From contig NC_016803.1 in assembly GCF_000189295.2 (NCBI RefSeq), positions 1,950,001 through 1,982,000 on the forward strand: a stretch of 32,000 nt of DNA, written 5' to 3'. The notes beneath the pieces were generated by a model. That model was not told where the DNA came from, did not search any database, and saw only the letters and a list, made by a program, of their open reading frames with translations. The DNA is from Pseudodesulfovibrio mercurii. Lineage in GTDB: Bacteria; Desulfobacterota; Desulfovibrionia; Desulfovibrionales; Desulfovibrionaceae. The translations under genes and the position numbers were made by a program. This document shows, piece by piece, positions 3,455 to 12,863 of this stretch; position 1 is the first letter of the stretch, and the number at the start of each line of letters is the position of its first letter.

Positions 3455-4657
3455 CTAGAAGCCCCACTTCGCCTTGATCGCGGCGGCGATCTGCTTGCCC
3501 TGCTCGTAGCACTTGCCGAGCACTTCATGGTCGGGCACATACTGGTTCTTGACCGGCTCGACCATCTCCATGCCCATGTCCTCGAGCCACTGGGTCAGGA
3601 TCTTGACGCATTCGCCGGACCAGCCGAAGGAGCCCACGGCGGAACCGATCTTGTTCTGGGGGCGCAGACCCTTCATGTAGGTCAGCATGTCGCCCATGAG
3701 CGGCAGGATGCCGTTGTTGTGGGTCGGGGACCCGACGACCACGGCGGCCGCGTCGAAGACCTCGGCCATGACGTCGGAGTGGTGGTTGTTCTTCATGCAC
3801 ATGACGCGCACGGACACGCCCTCGTCGGCCAGGCCCGCGGCGACGGCCTCGGCCATCTTCTCGGTGGAGTGCCACATGGTGTCGTAGACGATGACCGCCT
3901 TGTTCTTGGGCTTCTGCTCGGCGTACCCCTGGTACGTCTCCATGACCCAGTTGCAGTCGTCGCCCCGGAAGAGCAGGCCGTGGTCCGGGCAGATGGTGTC
4001 GATCTCCAGCCCCATCTCCTTGATGGCGGCCAGGGTCTTGAGCACCACCGGGGAGTACGGCAGGACGATGTTGGCGTAGTAGTTGGCCATGAGCTCTTCC
4101 AACCGGTAGCGGTCCACCTGGTCGGCCCAGCGCTCGGAAGTGGCCCAGTTCTGGCCGAAGGCGTCGTTGGTGAAGACGATCTTGTCCTCCGGGCAGTAGG
4201 TCAGCATGGAATCGGGCCAGTGCAGCATGCGGGTCTCGACAAAGGAGAGGGTCCGCGCGCCGATCTTGATCTCGGTGCCGGTGGGCACGACCTCCACGGG
4301 CCAGTCCGTGTACTTGAAGTGGGCCTTCATGGCCTTCTGGCCCATGGGCGAGGTGTAAACCTTCTCGGGCTGGTATTTCTCCACGACCTTGGCCAGGCAG
4401 CCGGAGTGGTCGGGCTCGAGGTGGTTGGCCACCACGTAGTCGATCTTCCGGTCGCCGAGCACCTGGGCGATGTTGCACTGCAGGGTGCCCCAGAATCTCT
4501 CGTCCACGGTATCGATCAGGGTCACCTTCTCGTCCACGATCAGAAAATTATTGTAGGTGGTGCCCTTGTGCGCCTTGGAATAGCCGTGGAAGTCGCGACG
4601 GTTCCAGTCCACCGCGCCCAGCCAGTAAATGCCCTTCTTGATTTCAACAGGTCTCAT
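3455..4657 (-). CDS. roo: Rubredoxin:oxygen oxidoreductase (flavodiiron protein, class A)
   Basis: Similar from end to end to my memory of D. gigas ROO: DWNxRDFHGY, HLEPDHSG, MLHWPDSM, WHSTEKMA, GSPTHNNGILP, GSFGWSGE. ATG at 4657 has GGAGAAG 6 nt upstream, so I prefer it to the GTG at 4669 in the ORF track. Confidence 0.93.
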   Translation of the reverse strand: MRPVEIKKGIYWLGAVDWNRRDFHGYSKAHKGTTYNNFLIVDEKVTLIDTVDERFWGTLQCNIAQVLGDRKIDYVVANHLEPDHSGCLAKVVEKYQPEKVYTSPMGQKAMKAHFKYTDWPVEVVPTGTEIKIGARTLSFVETRMLHWPDSMLTYCPEDKIVFTNDAFGQNWATSERWADQVDRYRLEELMANYYANIVLPYSPVVLKTLAAIKEMGLEIDTICPDHGLLFRGDDCNWVMETYQGYAEQKPKNKAVIVYDTMWHSTEKMAEAVAAGLADEGVSVRVMCMKNNHHSDVMAEVFDAAAVVVGSPTHNNGILPLMGDMLTYMKGLRPQNKIGSAVGSFGWSGECVKILTQWLEDMGMEMVEPVKNQYVPDHEVLGKCYEQGKQIAAAIKAKWGF

Positions 4658-4696
4658 GGTCTTCTCCACATTGAGCGGTTGCTCAACCGCTATGGT

Positions 4697-4730
4697 AAAA
4701 AAAGGAGCGCGAACCGTGGGTGCGCGCTCC
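4697..4730 (-). terminator. Rho-independent terminator between rubredoxin ORF and roo
   Basis: Minus strand reads GGAGCGCG-(11-nt loop)-CGCGCTCC followed by T7. A second 7-bp hairpin (4674-4691) sits just before the roo SD. Confidence 0.7.
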
Positions 4731-4753
4731 CTGGCCGCTGGTCGGGCCGAAAA

Positions 4754-4915
4754 TTAACCCTCGGGTACGAAGCTGTCCTTGCCCGCACCACAGACCGGAC
4801 AGGTCCAGTCGTCCGGCAGGTCCTCAAACTTGGTCCCGGCCGGGATGTCGGCATCGGAATCACCCTCGGCGGGGTCGTAAACATAGCCACAAATCTCGCA
4901 CACGTATTTCTGCAT
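4754..4915 (-). CDS. rub: Alternative product: stand-alone 53-aa canonical rubredoxin from an internal start
   Basis: The internal ATG at 4915 is preceded by AAGGAG with a 9-nt spacer. The 53-aa length is that of a classical Desulfovibrio rubredoxin. Confidence 0.45.
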
Positions 4916-5203
4916 GGGATCGGTCTCCTTTTGGACTTGTATTTTTGCAGCAGCGGCGGCCGCTGTCAACTTCTTGGGGTCGGTTTCAACGGGCAATTCA
5001 CAATCCGTCCGGGTCGAACCCGGACCGGCCAGGGGGCGGAAACACTTCTTGGTGCCCCCGCAGATGGGACAGCGCCAGTCGTCCGGCAGGTCCTCGAACC
5101 GGGTGCCCTTGGGGATCTTGCCCTTCCGGTCGCCCTTGTCCGGGTTGTAGATATAGCCGCAGTTCACGGTTTGGCACTGATACATCTCTTCGGGCAGGGC
5201 CAT
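4754..5203 (-). CDS. rub: Tandem rubredoxin ORF: N-terminal CX4C...CX2C (type-II-like) rubredoxin domain, 38-aa linker, C-terminal canonical rubredoxin
   Basis: A single 149-aa ORF with no in-frame stop. Domain 1 is [14 protein letters not shown]...[10 protein letters not shown]. Domain 2 is [12 protein letters not shown]...[22 protein letters not shown] lies upstream of the ATG at 5203. Confidence 0.65.
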
Positions 5204-5219
5204 GTCGCCTCCCTGGGGG

Positions 5220-5247
5220 AAAAGGGGCGGGCCTTGCGGCCCACCCC
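5220..5247 (-). terminator. Terminator/attenuator-like hairpin between dfx and the rubredoxin ORF
   Basis: Minus strand reads GGGGTGGGCC-GCAA-GGCCCGCCCC (one G-T wobble) followed by TTTT then C-run. The short T tract makes this weaker than the other terminators. Confidence 0.4.
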
Positions 5248-5295
5248 GGGGTGTCTCTCACGCGCGCCCTGCGGCGTCGCGGCACAGGGGATCGC

Positions 5296-5685
5296 CTACG
5301 CGGAGGCGGTCCACAGACCGTGAATGTTGCAGTACTCGCGGGCCTTGAGCGGGCCGGACAGGCCGCAGATGCAGAATTCGGCCTCGGGCTTCTCGCCGGG
5401 CTTGAGCATCTTGGTCAGGACCACGTCGCCCACCTGGAGCTCGATCCACTCGATGTAGTGCTTCTCCTCCATGGGATGGGCCACGGAACCGACCTTGACG
5501 GTGACCTTGTCGCCGTCCTTCTCGATGACGGGGACGTGCTTTTCCTTGGCGGCGTCCACAGTGTTTTCGGTCATCTGGACCATCTCCTCGCCGCAGCAGA
5601 CCAGGCTGCCGCCGCCTTCGTGAATGGCCATGACGATGTTGCCGCAGATATTACACTTGTACACTTCGCCCAGTTTGATAGCCAT
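5296..5685 (-). CDS. dfx: Desulfoferrodoxin (2Fe superoxide reductase)
   Basis: N-terminal desulforedoxin motifs are CNICGN and LVCCGE. The neelaredoxin domain shows [28 protein letters not shown] and [16 protein letters not shown] lies upstream of the ATG. Confidence 0.93.
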
Positions 5686-5713
5686 GTCGAATCCTCCTTG
5701 GATGACGTAAAAA

Positions 5714-6286
5714 TTACCAGTTGGTGTCCTTGATCTCGAAATGGGCCTGGGGATGGTCGCAGGCCGGGCACTTCACGGGAGCGGTGGTGCCCCTGTGATT
5801 GTAACCGCAGTTCTGGCAGCGCCAGACGATCTCCTCGTCCTTGGAAAAGACGCGGTCGGTCTCGATGTTCTTGATGAGGGCCTTGTAGCGCTCCTCATGG
5901 TACCGCTCGGCCACGGCGATGTTCTCCATGACCGCGGCGATCTCGTTGAAACCCTCCTGGCGCGCGATCTTGGCGAACCCGGGGTACATCTCGGTGTTCT
6001 CCTCGTGCTCGCCGGCCGCGGCGGCCTTGAGGTTCTCCAGGGTGTTGCCGATGACCCCGGCGGGGAAGGTGCCGGATACCTCGGCGGTGCCGCCCTCCAG
6101 GAACTTGAACAACCGCTTGGCGTGTTCCTTCTCGTGTCCGGCGGTCTCCTCGAAAATCTTGGAAATCTGCACGTAGCCCTCTTTCTTGGCCACGCTGGCG
6201 TAGTAGGTATACCGGTTGCGGGCCTGGGACTCGCCGGTGAATGCATACATCAGGTTCTTCTCGGTCTGGGTTCCTTTCAGGGACAT
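5714..6286 (-). CDS. rbr: Rubrerythrin
   Basis: Ferritin-like diiron domain ([37 protein letters not shown]) plus a C-terminal rubredoxin-like CQNCG...CPACDHP. ATG at 6286 has AAGGAGG 5 nt upstream and gives 190 aa. I reject the 6334 start in the ORF track. Confidence 0.92.
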
Positions 6287-6446
6287 TATTCCTCCTTGTG
6301 GAATGGATCCTTGGTGTTCCGATTCAGATGCCACCGTACACGAAAACAGGGGGCTTGTCGCATTATTCCGTGAGAAGGTGTTGCGTCTTTCGTTCTTTCA
6401 TCGTTTATCCTGGCGGCGCATTGGCTTATTGCCAAGATGGGAATTA

Positions 6447-6475
6447 TTACTAATTATAAACCCGCTCCCTGTCAA
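6447..6475 (-). promoter_or_regulatory. Putative sigma70 promoter of rbr (TTGACA-N17-TAGTAA) overlapped by an AT-rich PerR/Fur-type box
   Basis: The minus strand has TTGACA (6475-6470), a 17-nt spacer and TAGTAA (6452-6447). The imperfect palindrome ATTATTA-C-TAATTAT (6443-6457) covers the -10. The perR promoter has the same architecture. Confidence 0.5.
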
Positions 6476-6496
6476 GCGATGTGCGGGCCATAGAAT

Positions 6497-6533
6497 CAAA
6501 AAATAAAGCCGGTTGCCCCGAGAGGCAACCGGC
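6497..6533 (-). terminator. Rho-independent terminator downstream of perR
   Basis: Minus strand reads GCCGGTTGCC-TCTCGG-GGCAACCGGC followed by TTTATTTTTTG. Confidence 0.85.
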
Positions 6534-6567
6534 CTTGCGCCGCGGATGCGGATATTTTCCGAAATGT

Positions 6568-6966
6568 CTATTGCCGCGCGGCCTGGCACTTGGGGCAGAT
6601 GCCCACGAATTCCACGTTGGTGGTCAGGATCTTGAAGCCGCCGGCGCAGCTCTCCGGGATGTCCGGGATGTCGATGTCGCACTCCACGTCCACCACGGCC
6701 GTGCAGATCTCGCAGCGGATGTGCGGATGCGGCTCAGGAGTGCCGTCGAACCGTTTCTGCTCGCCGGGCGCACCCAGCTTGAGGACCAGTCCCTTGGAGG
6801 ACAGGAACTCGAGATTCCGGTACACGGTGCCCAGGCTGATCCTGGGAATGATCTTGCGCACCATGTCGTAAACCTCGTCGGCCGTGGGGTGCGTCTTCAC
6901 TTTCCGCAACTCTTCCAATATCACTTTCCGCTGCTTGGAAAGCCTGAAACCCATTTCCTGAGCCAT
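6568..6966 (-). CDS. perR: Fur-family transcriptional regulator, probably peroxide-responsive PerR
   Basis: A winged-helix region (RKVILEEL...HPTADEVY...ISLGTVYRNLEFL) is followed by two CXXC pairs, CEIC and CPKC. ATG at 6966 has GGAGG 6 nt upstream. The PerR call comes from adjacency to rbr, as in D. vulgaris perR-rbr. Confidence 0.8.
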   Translation of the reverse strand: MAQEMGFRLSKQRKVILEELRKVKTHPTADEVYDMVRKIIPRISLGTVYRNLEFLSSKGLVLKLGAPGEQKRFDGTPEPHPHIRCEICTAVVDVECDIDIPDIPESCAGGFKILTTNVEFVGICPKCQAARQ

Positions 6967-6991
6967 GGACGTCCTCCATATTTGATAACAA

Positions 6992-7020
6992 TTACTATTC
7001 CCCTGGTCCATTCTTGTCAA
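6992..7020 (-). promoter_or_regulatory. Putative sigma70 promoter of perR (TTGACA-N17-TAGTAA) with overlapping AT-rich operator-like sequence
   Basis: The minus strand has TTGACA (7020-7015), a 17-nt spacer and TAGTAA (6997-6992). GAATAGTAATTGTTATCAAAT spans the -10 and the likely start site. Confidence 0.5.
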
Positions 7021-7163: not shown

Positions 7164-7189
7164 AAAAGGGCCCGGCCGAAGCCGGGCCC
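7164..7189 (-). terminator. Rho-independent terminator downstream of the MCP gene
   Basis: Minus strand reads GGGCCCGGC-TTCG-GCCGGGCCC followed by TTTT. Confidence 0.75.
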
Positions 7190-7206
7190 CGTCATGCGTT
7201 GGGCCG

Positions 7207-9228
7207 CTAGTCGCGGAACTTGGAAACCAGTTCGGCCAGTTCCCCGGCCAGTTCCGAGACCTCCTGGATACCCCGGTTGGACTCGCGGATGCCGGACAGG
7301 ACCTCCTGGGAGAGGTGGTTGATCTGGGTCACGCGCGTGTTGATCTCGTCCGAGGTGGAGGACTGCTGTTCCGCCGCGGTGGCGATGCCGTTGACCATGT
7401 CGGCGATGGAGTTGGAGTGCCTGACGATCTCGTCGAGCACGCCGCCCGCCTCCTGGGCCATGCCCGAGGTGTTCAGGACCCGCTTCTTGGCGGTGTCCAT
7501 CTCCTTGACCACGTCCGTGGTGGACTGCTGGATGAGCGAGATGGCCCCCTCCACCTCCTTGGTGGCGTCCATGGTCTTCTCGGCCAGCTTGCGGACCTCG
7601 TCCGCGACCACGGCGAAGCCTCGGCCGGCCTCGCCCGCGCGGGCCGCCTCGATGGCCGCGTTGAGCGCCAGCAGGTTGGTCTGGTCCGCGATGTCGTTGA
7701 TCACGGCCATGACCTTGCCGATGTTCTCGGCCCGACTGGACAGGGAGGCCAGAGCCTCGGCCAGGTGTTCGGTGATGTCGGCCACGGAGTTGATCTCCTC
7801 CACGGTCTTGCCCACCACCACGCCGCCCGAGGCGGCCACCTTGTTGGCCTGGTCCGAGGCCTCGGCGGTCTCGGCGGCGTTCTTGGCCACCTCCAGCACC
7901 GTGGCGTTCATCTCCTCCATGGCCGTGGCCACCTGGCTGGTCTGGTCGGCGGTGGTGTCCACCCCGCTGGCCAGCTGGTCCATCCGGGTGGACAGCACGT
8001 TGGAGGCCTCGTTGAGCCTGTTGGCCACCTGGGTGACCTCGTTGGCCACTTCCAGGAGGCTCTGGCGCTGGAGTTCGATGCTCTTCTTGTCCTCCTCCTC
8101 GCGGGTCAGGTCGATGAGCACGCAGATGACGCCCACGGTCTCACCCTCGGCGTCCTTGAGCGGCGAGGCCTCGAACAGGAGCGGGAAGGTGGTGCCGTCC
8201 CGGCGGGTGAACAGGAAACGCCCGTTGAGGGGTTCGCCCAGGGCGATGACCTCGCCCGCGTTGCAGGCGGAACCGTCCTCGGACTCGCAGGCGAAAACCT
8301 CGGCCACGGCACGGCCCTTGAGCTCGTCCTCGGTCAGGTCCAGGATGGCCTGGAGGGGCGGGTTGACGAATTGCAGAGTCTGTTTGGCGTCGGTCACGAA
8401 CAGCGGGACCACGATGCCGCCGAGTACGCTCTGGTTGTATTCGAGCTGGTCCTTGATCTGGTTGACCATGGCCCCCAGGTAGCGGGACAGGGAGCCGAGC
8501 TCGTCGGACCCGGACACGGTGAACTGGGCGTCCAGGTTGCCGTGGGCCACGTCCTTGGCCGTGGTGGCGATGGAGGTGATGCGGTTGACGATGGCCTTGC
8601 GCATGAAGATGATCAGCGCGGCCAGCAGGGCCAGGACCCCGAGCAGGGAGATGCCCGCGGACTTGAACTGGTTGTCCTTGAGCGCGCCGTACTGCGGGCT
8701 GATGTCCACGGCCACGACCATGGCCCCGAGAATCTCCCGGCTGCGTCCATGGCAGTGGTAGCAGAACGGGTTGTTCCCGATGGACTTGACCTCCACGAAG
8801 TGGCGCTTGCCGCCGACCTCCTCCATCTTGCCCTCGGCCACCTTCTCCTCGAGCCCCCGGGCCACAAGGTCGGGCAGTCCGGCCTCGGGCATGACCTCGA
8901 AGATCTTCTTGCGCTCGGCCTCGGTCTCCGTGGAATAGGTGATCTCGCCCTTGTAGTCGGTCAGGTAGACCTGGATGTCCGGATAGCGCTCGGCCATCTG
9001 GAGGAACTTGATCTCCGTGCCCTCGTTGTCGCCCTTGGCCATGGGGTCCTCGATGGCGATGTAGAGCATGTCCGCCACCCGCTCCGCGGCCACGGCCACC
9101 TCATGCAGGGTGTGGTCCTTGGTCGTGATGGAGGTGTAGGCGAACAGCCCGGCAAAGGCCAGGATGGTCAGCAGGGACGAGAGCAGGATGAGTTTGACGC
9201 CCAGCGAGCGCGTGATGAAATTGTCCAT
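7207..9228 (-). CDS. dcrA: Methyl-accepting chemotaxis protein with periplasmic c-type haem motif, HAMP and cytoplasmic PAS domain (DcrA-like)
   Basis: Two TM segments flank a roughly 170-aa periplasmic domain carrying CYHCH (nt 8749-8763). After TM2 comes a HAMP-like segment, then a PAS-like segment. The C-terminal MCP signalling domain includes EQTNLLALNAAIEAARAGEAGRGFAVVADEVRKLAE. The size (673 aa) and haem motif resemble D. vulgaris DcrA. Confidence 0.85.
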   Translation of the reverse strand: MDNFITRSLGVKLILLSSLLTILAFAGLFAYTSITTKDHTLHEVAVAAERVADMLYIAIEDPMAKGDNEGTEIKFLQMAERYPDIQVYLTDYKGEITYSTETEAERKKIFEVMPEAGLPDLVARGLEEKVAEGKMEEVGGKRHFVEVKSIGNNPFCYHCHGRSREILGAMVVAVDISPQYGALKDNQFKSAGISLLGVLALLAALIIFMRKAIVNRITSIATTAKDVAHGNLDAQFTVSGSDELGSLSRYLGAMVNQIKDQLEYNQSVLGGIVVPLFVTDAKQTLQFVNPPLQAILDLTEDELKGRAVAEVFACESEDGSACNAGEVIALGEPLNGRFLFTRRDGTTFPLLFEASPLKDAEGETVGVICVLIDLTREEEDKKSIELQRQSLLEVANEVTQVANRLNEASNVLSTRMDQLASGVDTTADQTSQVATAMEEMNATVLEVAKNAAETAEASDQANKVAASGGVVVGKTVEEINSVADITEHLAEALASLSSRAENIGKVMAVINDIADQTNLLALNAAIEAARAGEAGRGFAVVADEVRKLAEKTMDATKEVEGAISLIQQSTTDVVKEMDTAKKRVLNTSGMAQEAGGVLDEIVRHSNSIADMVNGIATAAEQQSSTSDEINTRVTQINHLSQEVLSGIRESNRGIQEVSELAGELAELVSKFRD

Positions 9229-9237
9229 GCCGCCCTC

Positions 9238-9723
9238 CTAGTGCGCCCCGCCGTACAACAGCGGCTTGAAGTCAAAGGCCTCGACCCGTTCGGGATTGTG
9301 GCAGACCGTACAGTCGTCCAGGGTCAGGTTCCGCTTGATCAGGTCCGGGTCGCCCCCGGACTCCACGTGGTCGTAGCCCGGCCCGTGGCAGACCTCGCAC
9401 CCGGCCTGGGCCATGTTCGGTGTCTGCTCGAAGCTGACGAATCCTCCCGGCTTGCCGTACCCGGTCATGTGGCAGCCGTAACACTCGGCCAACTCCTCCT
9501 TGGTCAGGTCGCCCATCATGATCTTGACGGACTCTCCGGAGTGGGCCTTTTTCGCGAATTTCTTGTAATTGCCGTATTCCTTTTCGTGGCATTCGCTGCA
9601 CGATTCGGACCCGACGTAGCGGCCGGAATTTGCCCGACCGGACTCCGCCAGGACCGCGAAAACGACAAGGGCTGCCAGCGAAAGCGCACAGCAGCCCTTG
9701 ATCCACAACGATCTGTTGAACAT
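9238..9723 (-). CDS. Periplasmic tetrahaem c-type cytochrome (cytochrome c554-like family)
   Basis: Signal peptide plus four CXXCH motifs: CSECH, CYGCH, CEVCH and CTVCH. Its stop codon TAG is part of the MCP Shine-Dalgarno string (TAGGAGGG). Confidence 0.85.
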   Translation of the reverse strand: MFNRSLWIKGCCALSLAALVVFAVLAESGRANSGRYVGSESCSECHEKEYGNYKKFAKKAHSGESVKIMMGDLTKEELAECYGCHMTGYGKPGGFVSFEQTPNMAQAGCEVCHGPGYDHVESGGDPDLIKRNLTLDDCTVCHNPERVEAFDFKPLLYGGAH

Positions 9724-9866
9724 GAACCAACCCCCATAGCTATATAGCCCGGTGCCGCAACCGGCCGGGCACCCTTAACCCGGCCTGGTCAAATACGCCG
9801 TCACCATAGAGAAATATTCACTTTTGGTAAAGGGTTGGAGCTTGGGGGATCGACCTTCTCGATGTT

Positions 9867-12863
9867 TTACCAGGCCAAAGTCTCCTTGAAGGCGGCGGCC
9901 AGCCCGTCCACGGGCGCATCCAGCACCTTTTCGTCCGCCAGGGTGGCGATGAACGCGGGTTCCTCCGAGACGTCGCCGATCCAGGCGCAGGCCTGTCCGG
10001 CGAACAGGGCCTCGAACCGGTCGCGGTTCGACGGGGCCACGGTGACCAGCAGGCGGCTGGCCGATTCCGCGTAGAGCAGACCGGTCAGGTTGAGCTCGCC
10101 ACAGGCCGGGACCTGGTCCAGGTCCACCTCGGCGCCGAGCCGTCCGCCGATGCACATCTCGGCCAGGGCCACGCCCAGGCCGCCGTCCGAGCAGTCGTGG
10201 CAGGCGGTGATCAGCCCTTCCTGGGCGGCCGCGAACACGGTCTCGTAGCGCTTCTTCGCGGTCAGCAGGTCCACCTGCGGCACGCGGGCGTCGGAGAACT
10301 TGAGCTCGTCCGCGACCTCGCTGCCGCCCATCTCCGGCCGGGTCAGGCCGAGCAGGTAGATCAGGTCGCCGGGCTTCTTGAAGTCCGAGGTCAGGCACTT
10401 GTTCACGTCCGGGATGACGCCGATGATCGAGAAGAGCACGGTCGGGGGAATGGATATCTTGCGCCCGCCGCCCTTGTAGTCGTTCTTCATGGAGTCCTTG
10501 CCGGACACGCAGGGCACGCCGAAGCCGAGGCAGTAGTGGGCCAGGGCCTGGTTGGCCCGGACCAACTGGGCCAGCTTGTAGTGGCCGTCCGGGGTGGACT
10601 CGGACTGGACCGGGTCGCACCAGCAGAAGTTGTCCACGCCGGCCATGTAGGAGACGTCGCCGCCCACGGCCACGGCGTTGCGCACGGCCTCGTCGATGGC
10701 GTTGGCCATCATCCAGTAGGTGTCGTAGTCCGAGAACTGCGGGCAGATGCCGTGGGAGACCACCAGCCCCTTGTCCGAGCCGTACTCGGGCCGGATGACG
10801 CCCGCGTCGGACGGGCCGTCCGCCTTGACGCCGACCATGGGCTTGACCGCGGACTTGCCCTGGACCTCGTGGTCGTACTGCCGGACCACGTATTCCTTGG
10901 AGCAGATGTTCAGCCGGCCGAGCATGGCCTTGAGCAGTGCGTTCTGGTCGTCGGCAACGGGCACGGCGTCCTGGGCGATCTCGGGCCGTTTCCAGACGGC
11001 CTTGAGCTCCATCTGGGGCACGCCGTGGTGCAGGAAGTCCATGTCCAGGCAGGTGACCAGCTTGTCGCCGTAGCGCACCAGGTACTTGCCCGACTCGGTG
11101 AAGGTGCCGAGGGCGGTGGACTCCACGTCCATCTCCTCGGACAGGCGCATGAACTCGTCGAGCTTGTCCGGGGGCACGGCCATGGTCATGCGCTCCTGGG
11201 CCTCGGAGATGAGGACCTCCCAGGGACGCAGCCCGTCGTACTTGAGCGGGGCCTTTTTCAGGTCCATGTCGAAGCCGCCGGAGTCCTCGGCCATCTCGCC
11301 CACGGAGGAGGACAGGCCGCCCGCCCCGTTGTCGGTAATGGCGTGGTACAGCCCGAGGTCGCGGGCGCGCATGAGAAAGTCGTACATCTTGCGCTGGGTG
11401 ATGGGGTCGCCGATCTGGACCGCCGTGGCCGGGGAGCCCTCGTGCAGCTCCTCGGACGAGAAGGTCGCGCCGTGGATGCCGTCCGCGCCGATGCGGCCGC
11501 CGGACATGACGATGATGTCGCCGGGCAGGGCGCATTTCTCATAGGACGGATGGCCGGAGACCATGACCGGCATGGTCCCGATGGTCCCGCAGTAGACCAG
11601 GGGCTTGCCCAGGTAGCGCTCGTCGAAGACGATGGACCCGTTCACGGTCGGGATGCCGGACTTGTTGCCGCCGTGCTCCACGCCCTCGCGCACGCCCTCG
11701 AAGACGCGGCGCGGGTGCAGCAGCCTGGGCGGCAGCTCGCCCTCGTGGAACGGGGAGGCGAAGCAGAACACGTCGGTGTTGCACAAAAGGTTCGCGCCCA
11801 TGCCCGTGCCCATGGGGTCGCGGTTCACGCCGACGATGCCGGTCAGGGCCCCGCCGTAGGGGTCCAGGGCGGACGGCGAGTTGTGGGTCTCCATCTTGAC
11901 GCAGACGTTGATGGACTCGGAGAACTTGATCACGCCCGCGTTGTCCTTGAACACGGACAGGCAGTAGTCGCCGCCCTCGCGGGAGGCCGCGTTGCGCGCG
12001 CGGATCTGCTTGGTGGAGTTCTGGATGAAGGTCTTGTACAGGCTCGAATACTCGACGGTCTTGCCGGTCTCGGTGTTCTCGTATTCGATCTTGGCCGAGA
12101 AGATCTTGTGCTTGCAGTGCTCGGACCAGGTCTGGGCCAGGACCTCGATCTCGGCGTCCGTGGGATCGGCGGCGAGGCCCATGGTCTCGCGCTCCGCCCG
12201 GACCGCCGAGTCCGCGAAGTAGGCGCGGATGTCGTGCAGCTCCCTGAGGGACAGGGCCAGGGTGTTGGCACGGGAAAAGTCGGTCAGCTCGTCGTCGGTC
12301 ATGGTGGACAGGGGAATGATCCCGACCTCGTCCGAGGCCTGGCCCGTGACCCGTGCGGCCTTGGCCGCGAAGCCGGGGTCCTCGGCCCACTGGGCGGCGG
12401 ACTTGTACTCGAAGCGCTGGATCAGTTCGTTGGCCAGCAGGTCCTTGGCGATGCGGTGCGCGCCCGCCTCGTCCATGTCGGCCTGGATCAGGTACTGCCG
12501 CGAGGTGTAGACCTTGATCCCCTCGCGCTCGGCCCGGGTCAATCCCAGGACCACGCCCAGGGTCTCGCGGGCGGTCCGCCCCTCGTTGTCGGTCACGCCG
12601 GGCCGGAAGCCGACCTCGATGATCCAGTCGAAGTCGCGGGCCAGGGGCGCGAGCGACACCTCGTGCAGGACCGGGTCGTGCAGGGCGGCCCGCTCGATGG
12701 CCAGGTCCACCTGCTCCCCGGTCACGCCCTCCAGGGTGAAGACGTTGACGATGCGGACGTCGCGCACGTCCATGCCGAGTTCGCTCCTGATCTTGCGGGC
12801 GATCTTCTCGCCGAGCACGTCCCGGACGCCTTCCTTCAGTCCAACGATCACACGACAAAGCAT
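9867..12863 (-). CDS. purL: Phosphoribosylformylglycinamidine (FGAM) synthase, PurL synthetase with fused N-terminal PurS-like region and no glutaminase domain
   Basis: 998-aa ORF with PurL/AIR-synthase-related motifs: ETHNHPSA-like METHNSPSALDPYGGA, DNGAGGLSSSVGEMA, SGKDSM. GAGGAGAG lies upstream of the ATG. Confidence 0.9.
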   Translation of the reverse strand: MLCRVIVGLKEGVRDVLGEKIARKIRSELGMDVRDVRIVNVFTLEGVTGEQVDLAIERAALHDPVLHEVSLAPLARDFDWIIEVGFRPGVTDNEGRTARETLGVVLGLTRAEREGIKVYTSRQYLIQADMDEAGAHRIAKDLLANELIQRFEYKSAAQWAEDPGFAAKAARVTGQASDEVGIIPLSTMTDDELTDFSRANTLALSLRELHDIRAYFADSAVRAERETMGLAADPTDAEIEVLAQTWSEHCKHKIFSAKIEYENTETGKTVEYSSLYKTFIQNSTKQIRARNAASREGGDYCLSVFKDNAGVIKFSESINVCVKMETHNSPSALDPYGGALTGIVGVNRDPMGTGMGANLLCNTDVFCFASPFHEGELPPRLLHPRRVFEGVREGVEHGGNKSGIPTVNGSIVFDERYLGKPLVYCGTIGTMPVMVSGHPSYEKCALPGDIIVMSGGRIGADGIHGATFSSEELHEGSPATAVQIGDPITQRKMYDFLMRARDLGLYHAITDNGAGGLSSSVGEMAEDSGGFDMDLKKAPLKYDGLRPWEVLISEAQERMTMAVPPDKLDEFMRLSEEMDVESTALGTFTESGKYLVRYGDKLVTCLDMDFLHHGVPQMELKAVWKRPEIAQDAVPVADDQNALLKAMLGRLNICSKEYVVRQYDHEVQGKSAVKPMVGVKADGPSDAGVIRPEYGSDKGLVVSHGICPQFSDYDTYWMMANAIDEAVRNAVAVGGDVSYMAGVDNFCWCDPVQSESTPDGHYKLAQLVRANQALAHYCLGFGVPCVSGKDSMKNDYKGGGRKISIPPTVLFSIIGVIPDVNKCLTSDFKKPGDLIYLLGLTRPEMGGSEVADELKFSDARVPQVDLLTAKKRYETVFAAAQEGLITACHDCSDGGLGVALAEMCIGGRLGAEVDLDQVPACGELNLTGLLYAESASRLLVTVAPSNRDRFEALFAGQACAWIGDVSEEPAFIATLADEKVLDAPVDGLAAAFKETLAW

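Follow-up and report, generated by a model that had tools for sequence, protein, structure and literature searches.

The cytochrome-chemoreceptor gene pair

The 32,000-nucleotide (nt) stretch of Pseudodesulfovibrio mercurii DNA analyzed here (contig NC_016803.1, positions 1,950,001 to 1,982,000; hereafter called the window) carries on its minus strand a gene for a small tetrahaem cytochrome c and, downstream of it, a gene for a methyl-accepting chemotaxis protein (MCP) of the type of DcrA from Desulfovibrio vulgaris, which has a single c-type haem motif in its sensor domain. The cytochrome and the sensor belong together, as read from their genomic linkage, and because the two genes stay together in >90% of the ~160 related loci covered by our two surveys, the DcrA-type “oxygen/redox sensor” probably functions as a unit of two proteins. 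The features of the locus are collected in Table 1. On the minus strand the junction of the two genes reads ...GCG CAC TAG GAGGGCGGC ATG, and since the gap is only 9 nt and the stop codon of the cytochrome gene lies inside the Shine-Dalgarno sequence of the MCP gene, the pair is likely to be translationally coupled. Almost certainly, to judge from this arrangement, the two genes are co-transcribed as a bicistronic operon. The layout had been described correctly in the initial annotation, where the 161-residue protein with four CXXCH motifs, the 9-nt gap, the TAG embedded in the Shine-Dalgarno sequence, and the CYHCH motif of the MCP at nt 8749-8763 were all read from the sequence.

Table 1. 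Features of the cytochrome-MCP locus and its surroundings in the window
Feature	Position (nt)	Strand	Basis or remark
c554-family tetrahaem cytochrome c, 161 aa, N-terminal signal/anchor helix, last residue His	9238..9723	-	Pfam PF13435
DcrA-type methyl-accepting chemotaxis protein, 673 aa	7207..9228	-	HAMP, PAS_9, MCPsignal
Periplasmic haem-c PAS-like (PDC-like) sensor domain, residues ~32-191	8656..9135	-	Profile match to Geobacter domains
Haem-binding motif C156-Y-H158-C159-H160, then G161 (predicted haem attachment)	8749..8763	-	Invariance in linked sensors
Cytoplasmic PAS domain, residues 275-375	8104..8406	-	PAS_9, 1.1e-14
MCP signaling domain, residues 456-639	7312..7863	-	PF00015, 1.3e-50
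Cytochrome TAG stop overlapping the AGGAGG Shine-Dalgarno of the MCP	9234..9240	-	Read from sequence
GGGGG Shine-Dalgarno-like run, 8-12 nt 5' of the cytochrome ATG	9731..9735	-	GGGGGTTGGT-N-ATG kept in 12 relatives
Candidate promoter TTTACC (9831-9826), 17-nt spacer, TATGGT (9808-9803)	9803..9831	-	Conserved in 12-relative alignment
Intrinsic-terminator-like hairpin: 10-bp G+C stem, UUCG loop, UUUU; begins 17 nt past the MCP stop	7164..7190	-	Terminator scan and folding
purL	9867..12863		Upstream of cytochrome
Fur/PerR-family regulator	6568-7020	-	Downstream of MCP
Rubrerythrin	5714-6334	-	Downstream of MCP
Desulfoferrodoxin (dfx)	5296-5685	-	Downstream of MCP
Fused two-domain rubredoxin, 149 aa	4754-5203	-	Downstream of MCP
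ROO-type flavodiiron protein	3455-4669	-	Downstream of MCP

Linkage of the cytochrome and the sensor

The linkage was surveyed from both sides. For the cytochrome, an alignment of its homologs was searched against one genome per species, and the best 80 of 420 relatives were used; for the sensor, an alignment of 20 sequences, a subset chosen because the full alignment of 74 sensors is too diverse for a locus scan, was searched against metagenomes, and the best 80 of 368 relatives were used. In the former survey a sensor homolog is found directly downstream of the cytochrome gene and on the same strand in 74 of the 80 loci, which corresponds to 74 of the 79 assessable loci (94%). A single C-x-H-C-H motif lies at residues 153-180 (mostly 154-162) in 73 of these 74 linked sensors, and the remaining one ends after 57 residues at the end of its contig. 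The six loci without a sensor downstream consist of one contig that ends 253 nt past the cytochrome and five stand-alone paralogues. In the latter survey the cytochrome is encoded immediately upstream of the sensor in 78 of the 80 metagenome loci (97.5%), down to a sensor identity of 32%. The gaps between the paired genes are short (median 14 nt; ≤30 nt in 55 of the 74 pairs), several pairs overlap by one base, and the linked loci range over Desulfovibrionales, Desulfobacterales, Desulfarculaceae, Desulfobulbaceae, Syntrophobacterales, and Thermodesulfobacteria, together with two probably mis-binned contigs. The cytochromes are more similar to each other than the sensors are (mean identity of 56% vs 28%), and the distance matrices of the two proteins correlate with a Mantel r of 0.69, a value reached in 0 of 2000 permutations. 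The initial annotation had regarded the cytochrome as a dedicated partner of the MCP and proposed to look for the linkage in relatives; the figures from both directions, which come from several orders of sulfate reducers, do not refute that view and bear it out.

The partners encoded behind the cytochrome are not all chemoreceptors. The 74 partners include 66 MCPs and 4 histidine kinases, 3 of which are hybrid, and the rest are cut or frameshifted. In a further pair, the start of the gene for a 1100-residue hybrid kinase (P0350) overlaps the cytochrome gene, and another pair is embedded in the gene order cheW-cyt-MCP-cheR-cheB. Because the pair is also encoded ahead of histidine kinases, the cytochrome goes with the sensor domain and not with chemotaxis, and what is conserved, as judged from gene content, is the combination of cytochrome and haem sensor domain, i.e., an input module. 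The pair is retained beyond Desulfovibrionaceae, where it is flanked by unrelated genes.

Some individual loci show features of their own. Two MCPs of the CxHCH type encoded behind cheA-cheW (L142:2982-3563 and L150:825-2861) lack the cytochrome, which may be encoded elsewhere in the respective genomes. The stand-alone cytochrome paralogue at L032 shares its genome with a linked copy (L007), and its upstream neighbor looks PAS-containing. At L038:4403-6103, the frame of the MCP stops after the PAS domain and the signaling domain is found in another frame, which is probably due to a frameshift or an assembly error. The MCP of Desulfovibrio sp. UBA6079 (L018:6421-8781) possesses an extra C-terminal PilZ domain (7e-10), which would imply an input of c-di-GMP into the redox chemoreceptor.

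The haem sensor domain and its signature

The MCP has hydrophobic segments at residues ~12-31 and 192-212, and its CYHCH motif, the single CXXCH of the ~160-residue domain between them, is placed in the periplasm by this position. The second segment leads into a HAMP domain (residues 208-259), and the best matches of the C-terminal part among solved structures are MCP signaling domains. The periplasmic region reached no Pfam family in the domain scan, and the window sensor scored 15.2 bits (E = 0.028) against PF21563, below the 27-bit cut-off. This family is matched by 19 of the 74 linked partners at a whole-protein E of ≤1e-5, and four linked partners scanned singly reach the 27-bit cut-off. 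Searched alone against solved structures, the window sensor sequence found only GSU0935 of Geobacter sulfurreducens (3b42), with E = 1; the profile of the 74 linked sensors found GSU0935 at 1.7e-9 and GSU0582 (3b47) at 2.3e-6, with the elements N-E-x-x-C-x-x-C-H ... L-G-G aligned. An AlphaFold2 (AF2) model of the sensor, built on a 5-sequence alignment and of low confidence (pLDDT 52), has the topology alpha-alpha, beta-beta, alpha-alpha, beta-beta-beta, and a Foldseek search with it gave 3b42 as the top match (6e-7), ahead of the PDC sensors WalK, DctB, LuxQ, and CitA. Based on the profile match and on 3b42 being the top structural match of the model, the domain is considered to belong, as a distant relative, to the superfamily of haem-c PAS-like sensors. 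M63 of the window sensor is present in 78% of the linked sensors and replaced by Leu in the rest. The family is small, with 252 clusters at E ≤1e-3 in 1.84 billion representative proteins.

The linked sensors are 18-60% identical, and only N152, C156, H158, C159, H160, G161, and G168 are invariant in all 74 of them, giving the signature N-x3-C-x-H-C-H-G. Among the best 150 representatives of the sensor family, 130 possess C-x-H-C-H (127 with G next), 13 possess another CXXCH, and 7 are fragments. The additional His at the second X of the CXXCH motif (His158 in the window) tends to occur together with the cytochrome gene: there is no c554-like gene within reach in seven of the eight family members without the His whose genomic context was inspected, and of the four distant members inspected that possess the His (~25% identity), three were assessable, all of them with the cytochrome gene directly upstream. 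Fisher's test of this co-occurrence gives p ~3e-8 with phylogeny ignored. The exception is a CQPCH member (L169:233-2955) in the gene order hypA-MCP-cheW-cytochrome, where a c554-like gene lies two genes downstream; its product is divergent and ends with ...GGGLKF, not with His. That order hints that c554-like cytochromes became associated with haem MCPs at an earlier stage or on a separate occasion. As far as comparison of sequences can tell, nothing hints more strongly at a contact between the two proteins than the co-occurrence of His158 and the cytochrome.

The tetrahaem cytochrome

The cytochrome, which has 100% identity to a known P. mercurii protein, starts with a hydrophobic signal/anchor segment and contains the four haem motifs CSECH, CYGCH, CEVCH, and CTVCH. 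It matches the Pfam family Cytochrome_C554 (PF13435) at 1e-18, with 68.4 bits vs a cut-off of 20.8, and its best solved relative is cytochrome c554 of Nitrosomonas europaea, which was found at 3e-7 with the sequence alone and at 2.5e-10 with a 59-sequence profile, haems 1-3 being covered. The NCBIfam equivalog for nitrifier c554 (NF043010) was not reached, the score being 44.5 bits vs a cut-off of 400. By these family models, the protein is a member of the c554 family and not nitrifier c554 itself. Another NCBIfam family, NF041198, matches at 1.7e-21; this family consists of UshA-like (seleno)proteins, whose C-terminal 120 residues are similar to the cytochrome, which suggests that the same tetrahaem module also occurs fused to a periplasmic enzyme. 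Long homologs of the cytochrome (P0098, P0117, and P0120) were considered as Rosetta-stone fusions and turned out merely to have over-extended N termini.

The conservation pattern allows some inspection of the likely haem ligands. Across 79 cytochrome sequences, the four CXXCH motifs, H119, K59, and the C-terminal H161 are invariant, M69 is conserved in 95%, and H61 in 66%; the C-terminal residue is His in 80 of 80 cytochromes. With the CxHCH motif likewise invariant in 74 sensors, the haem motifs of the two proteins are no accident of sequence. Since only two His are invariant, and one Met nearly so, as possible distal ligands of the four haems, one haem may be five-coordinate or ligated by Lys. 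The segment T-G-Y-G-K-P-G-G-F after the second motif aligns with the haem-2 region of c554, and haem 2 of nitrifier c554 is five-coordinate, buried, and poorly reactive. The idea that the C-terminal His is a partner-specific ligand was discarded because the stand-alone paralogues retain it, which points to an internal ligand. A haem-free AF2 model of the cytochrome (pLDDT 75) yielded no significant match in a Foldseek search against the PDB, haem-free multihaem folds being poor queries.

Expression signals and gene neighborhood

When the spacer between purL and the cytochrome gene was aligned for 12 relatives, just two blocks were conserved, namely TTTACC-N17-TAT(A/G)(G/A)N and the GGGGGTTGG ribosome-binding region, and the flanks of the former were unalignable. 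In the window the first block is situated immediately 3' of the purL stop and matches 8 of 12 consensus positions; a sigma-70 scan upstream of the cytochrome gene returned no site, and TTTACC-N17-TATGGT scored below its threshold. We infer that this element is a better promoter candidate than the TATATA proposed in the initial annotation. The latter sequence does exist at 9741-9746, 18-23 nt from the ATG, where it falls in a stretch that varies among the 12 relatives and has no sigma-70-type match; it was therefore rejected. The hairpin behind the MCP gene, which separates the pair from perR, folds with -38.6 kcal/mol (z = -3.4). No Rfam family was matched in the operon or the window.

The gene order in the window is purL-cyt-MCP-perR-rbr-dfx-rub-roo, and the stretch 3455-7020 is, as predicted from its genes, a complete oxygen-defense cluster. 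These neighbors, i.e., perR, rubrerythrin, desulfoferrodoxin, rubredoxin, and ROO, fit an oxygen/redox role of the pair. A strong terminator-like hairpin is also present at 6536-6505, between the Fur/PerR regulator and rubrerythrin. The locus L018 has exactly the order purL-cyt-MCP-dfx-rub-roo, and parts of the purL...roo synteny are common to ~20 Desulfovibrionaceae loci. The layout in D. vulgaris is presumably dcrA-rbo-rub-roo, to which the window adds a perR-rbr insert. Because of the shared gene order, the window MCP is, by gene neighborhood, the positional counterpart of D. vulgaris dcrA. D. vulgaris Hildenborough was absent among the matches listed for the homologs of the window cytochrome and the L018 cytochrome. 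The likeness to DcrA asserted in the initial annotation holds for architecture, motif, length, and neighborhood; the cytoplasmic PAS domain, which had been called additional there, is shared, as a review describes one in DcrA too.

Discussion

The explanation that we regard as rather likely is that the bicistronic operon encodes a two-protein input for periplasmic redox/oxygen sensing in which electrons pass between the cytochrome and the sensor haem. In such a system, the PAS-like periplasmic domain of the receptor would bind one covalent c-type haem at C156-x-H-C-H160, and the small c554-family tetrahaem cytochrome, either soluble or anchored, would be its dedicated partner. The cytochrome might couple the redox state of the sensor haem to the periplasmic electron pool, i.e., the network of hydrogenase and cytochrome c3, and might re-reduce the sensor haem after its oxidation by O2 or another oxidant, and the output of the sensor would then be the balance of oxidant vs reductant supply. 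When the redox state of this haem changes, the transmembrane helices would be shifted, and the signal would pass through HAMP, the cytoplasmic PAS domain, and the MCP signaling domain to CheA. Both isolated DcrA and the Geobacter homologues have been described as undergoing a ligand switch of this kind. The layout of the genes, the homology of the two proteins, their near-obligate two-way linkage, the reuse of the pair with histidine kinases, and the joint occurrence of C-x-H-C-H-G and the cytochrome are observations; that the genes are co-transcribed, that haem is attached, that the proteins make contact, that electrons are transferred and in which direction, and what the signal is are the parts of this scheme that we infer. 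Among them, electron exchange between the cytochrome and the sensor haem seems most likely as the link between the two proteins. The c554 family is an electron-transfer family, which supports such an exchange, and the DcrA haem reportedly has a very low potential, autoxidizes rapidly, and undergoes a redox-linked ligand switch (Yoshioka et al., 2005). Electron exchange is also the most economical assumption because, besides the nature of c554-type electron carriers and these properties of the DcrA haem, a relay would allow the receptor to report the balance between oxidants and the electron pool.

Several points weigh against this explanation. In the same 2005 work of Yoshioka et al., the isolated periplasmic domain of DcrA is reported to be redox-active, to bind CO, and to autoxidize alone, and so a partner appears to be unnecessary for the haem chemistry in vitro. 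The linkage data, which come from gene order, tell of the pairing and not of what passes between the proteins nor of the direction of electron transfer, so that the relay to the sensor haem in place of direct ligand sensing, as suggested in the initial annotation, stays a proposal. The surveys also have limits as samples: the best-80 sets are biased toward relatives of the window and their loci are phylogenetically non-independent, one of the two sensor search patterns demanded CxHCHG, and the correlation of His158 with the cytochrome may reflect a single clade. Moreover, the two exceptions on the sensor side adjoin cheA-cheW with no cytochrome in front, and five cytochrome paralogues (L017, L026, L032, L057, and L068) stand alone with no haem sensor nearby, so the association is not absolute.

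One alternative is that the cytochrome acts as a structural co-receptor, in the manner of LuxP-LuxQ or TorT-TorS. It would bind stably to the PAS-like domain, where His158 or another residue contacts or ligates its haem, and the signal would be redox-dependent association or ligation instead of electron transfer. In its favor, invariance of the His at the second X position is confined to sensors that have the cytochrome, and the structures of the Geobacter homologues, determined on the domains by themselves, show CQSCH. Foldseek also groups the sensor with PDC domains, one of which is that of LuxQ, a protein that uses a periplasmic partner. However, the C-terminal His of the cytochrome is kept in the stand-alone paralogues and so looks like an internal ligand, not a partner-specific one, and a co-receptor role overlaps electron exchange without excluding it; we consider it an improbable substitute. 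An extension of this idea is an inter-protein five-haem assembly in which His158 would be an axial ligand of, or a contact for, a haem of the partner, and redox-dependent ligation across the two proteins, not gas binding at the sensor haem, would be the transmembrane signal. We give this assembly a similarly small chance. If it were true, DcrA-type receptors and the histidine kinases that share the module would be obligate heteromeric haem-wire sensors, with a mode of signal input undescribed for any chemoreceptor.

Another alternative, which seems equally unlikely to us, is that the cytochrome itself is the primary ligand sensor, binding O2, NO, or CO at one five-coordinate haem, and that the MCP haem merely receives a redox or conformational change. 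The segment C81-x-x-C-H-x-T-G-Y-G-K-P-G-G-F aligns with the haem-2 region of c554, the invariant H119 and H161 and the 95%-conserved M69 have to serve four haems, so that one may want a distal ligand from the protein, and the cytochrome is far better conserved than the sensor (56% vs 28% mean identity). On the other hand, the invariant K59 or H61 (66%) could complete the coordination, and the five-coordinate haem of nitrifier c554 is, as established knowledge has it, buried and poorly reactive. The haem-free AF2 model yields nothing useful in Foldseek, and if the cytochrome sensed the ligand, there would be no role for the haem that the sensor itself carries or for the invariant signature around it. 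That the genes are functionally independent, the cytochrome being a general periplasmic carrier or a part of oxygen defense that is merely co-located or co-regulated, is highly improbable: the pair of Desulfovibrionaceae does lie within the conserved purL ... perR-rbr-dfx-rub-roo neighborhood and stand-alone cytochrome paralogues do occur, but the pair survives where all other neighbors change and before histidine kinases, its genes are separated by a few nucleotides or overlap, and the linkage is two-way (94% and 97.5%).

The pairing of the two genes bears on a problem of some age. No c-haem sensor protein had been described before DcrA, which reviews still list as a direct oxygen sensor; since 1994 it has been a question what its signal is and by what means a haem of such low potential is kept poised in the periplasm. 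A near-obligate, translationally coupled partner offers a concrete and testable answer regarding the input of DcrA, and the conservation of this partner across orders of sulfate reducers and its reuse with histidine kinases define a portable two-gene redox input module. The pairing points to energy or redox taxis coupled to the electron pool. The signature C-x-H-C-H-G would predict which haem sensors need a partner, and for this reason half of the system may have escaped the studies done in vitro with sensor domains on their own. Haem-c chemoreceptors are already known from DcrA and the Geobacter sensors, and the cytochrome partnership would be the new element. We found no report of the linkage in the accessible literature; it may have been noticed earlier, perhaps when the cytochromes of sulfate reducers were compared across genomes.

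Comparison with known systems

The closest known system is DcrA of Desulfovibrio (Nitratidesulfovibrio) vulgaris Hildenborough (Fu, Wall, and Voordouw, 1994; Yoshioka et al., 2005). Like the window protein, it is an MCP of ~670 residues with two transmembrane segments and one periplasmic c-type haem motif, its gene adjoins rbo(dfx)-rub-roo, an order into which perR-rbr is inserted in the window, and its cytoplasmic PAS domain is haem-free according to a review. In reviews, however, DcrA is presented as a stand-alone, direct oxygen/redox sensor, with no partner cytochrome mentioned, whereas the window MCP is translationally coupled to a tetrahaem cytochrome.

The MCPs GSU0582 and GSU0935 of G. 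sulfurreducens (3B47 and 3B42; PF21563) possess a homologous sensor, likewise located between two transmembrane helices, and M63 of the window sensor aligns with the Met-Met-Ala-Gly-Asp region of GSU0582. We take this region to hold the distal Met ligand. The Geobacter sensors differ in having CQSCH followed by D or E in place of C-x-H-C-H-G, and their MCPs lack the cytoplasmic PAS domain, HAMP being followed by the MCP domain. The cytochrome finds its counterpart in c554 of N. europaea (CycA; 1BVB and 1FT5), which is also a tetrahaem protein of the same Pfam family and aligns over haems 1-3 and over T-G-[YF]-G-x-x-G-G-[FY] after haem 2. In contrast to c554, the window cytochrome is small (~130 mature residues vs 211), has an invariant C-terminal His, lacks the context of hydroxylamine oxidoreductase, and has a sensor instead of an enzyme as its partner.

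With respect to the division of labor, the pair recalls LuxP-LuxQ, TorT-TorS, and the CetA-CetB system of Campylobacter, the last of which is listed in the literature as a bipartite energy-taxis sensor. In each of them the membrane transducer depends on a second protein to perceive or condition its signal, and LuxQ is among the structural neighbors of the window sensor model. Their partner proteins LuxP, TorT, and CetB are, however, not cytochromes and have no homology to the window cytochrome, and CetB is a cytoplasmic PAS protein.

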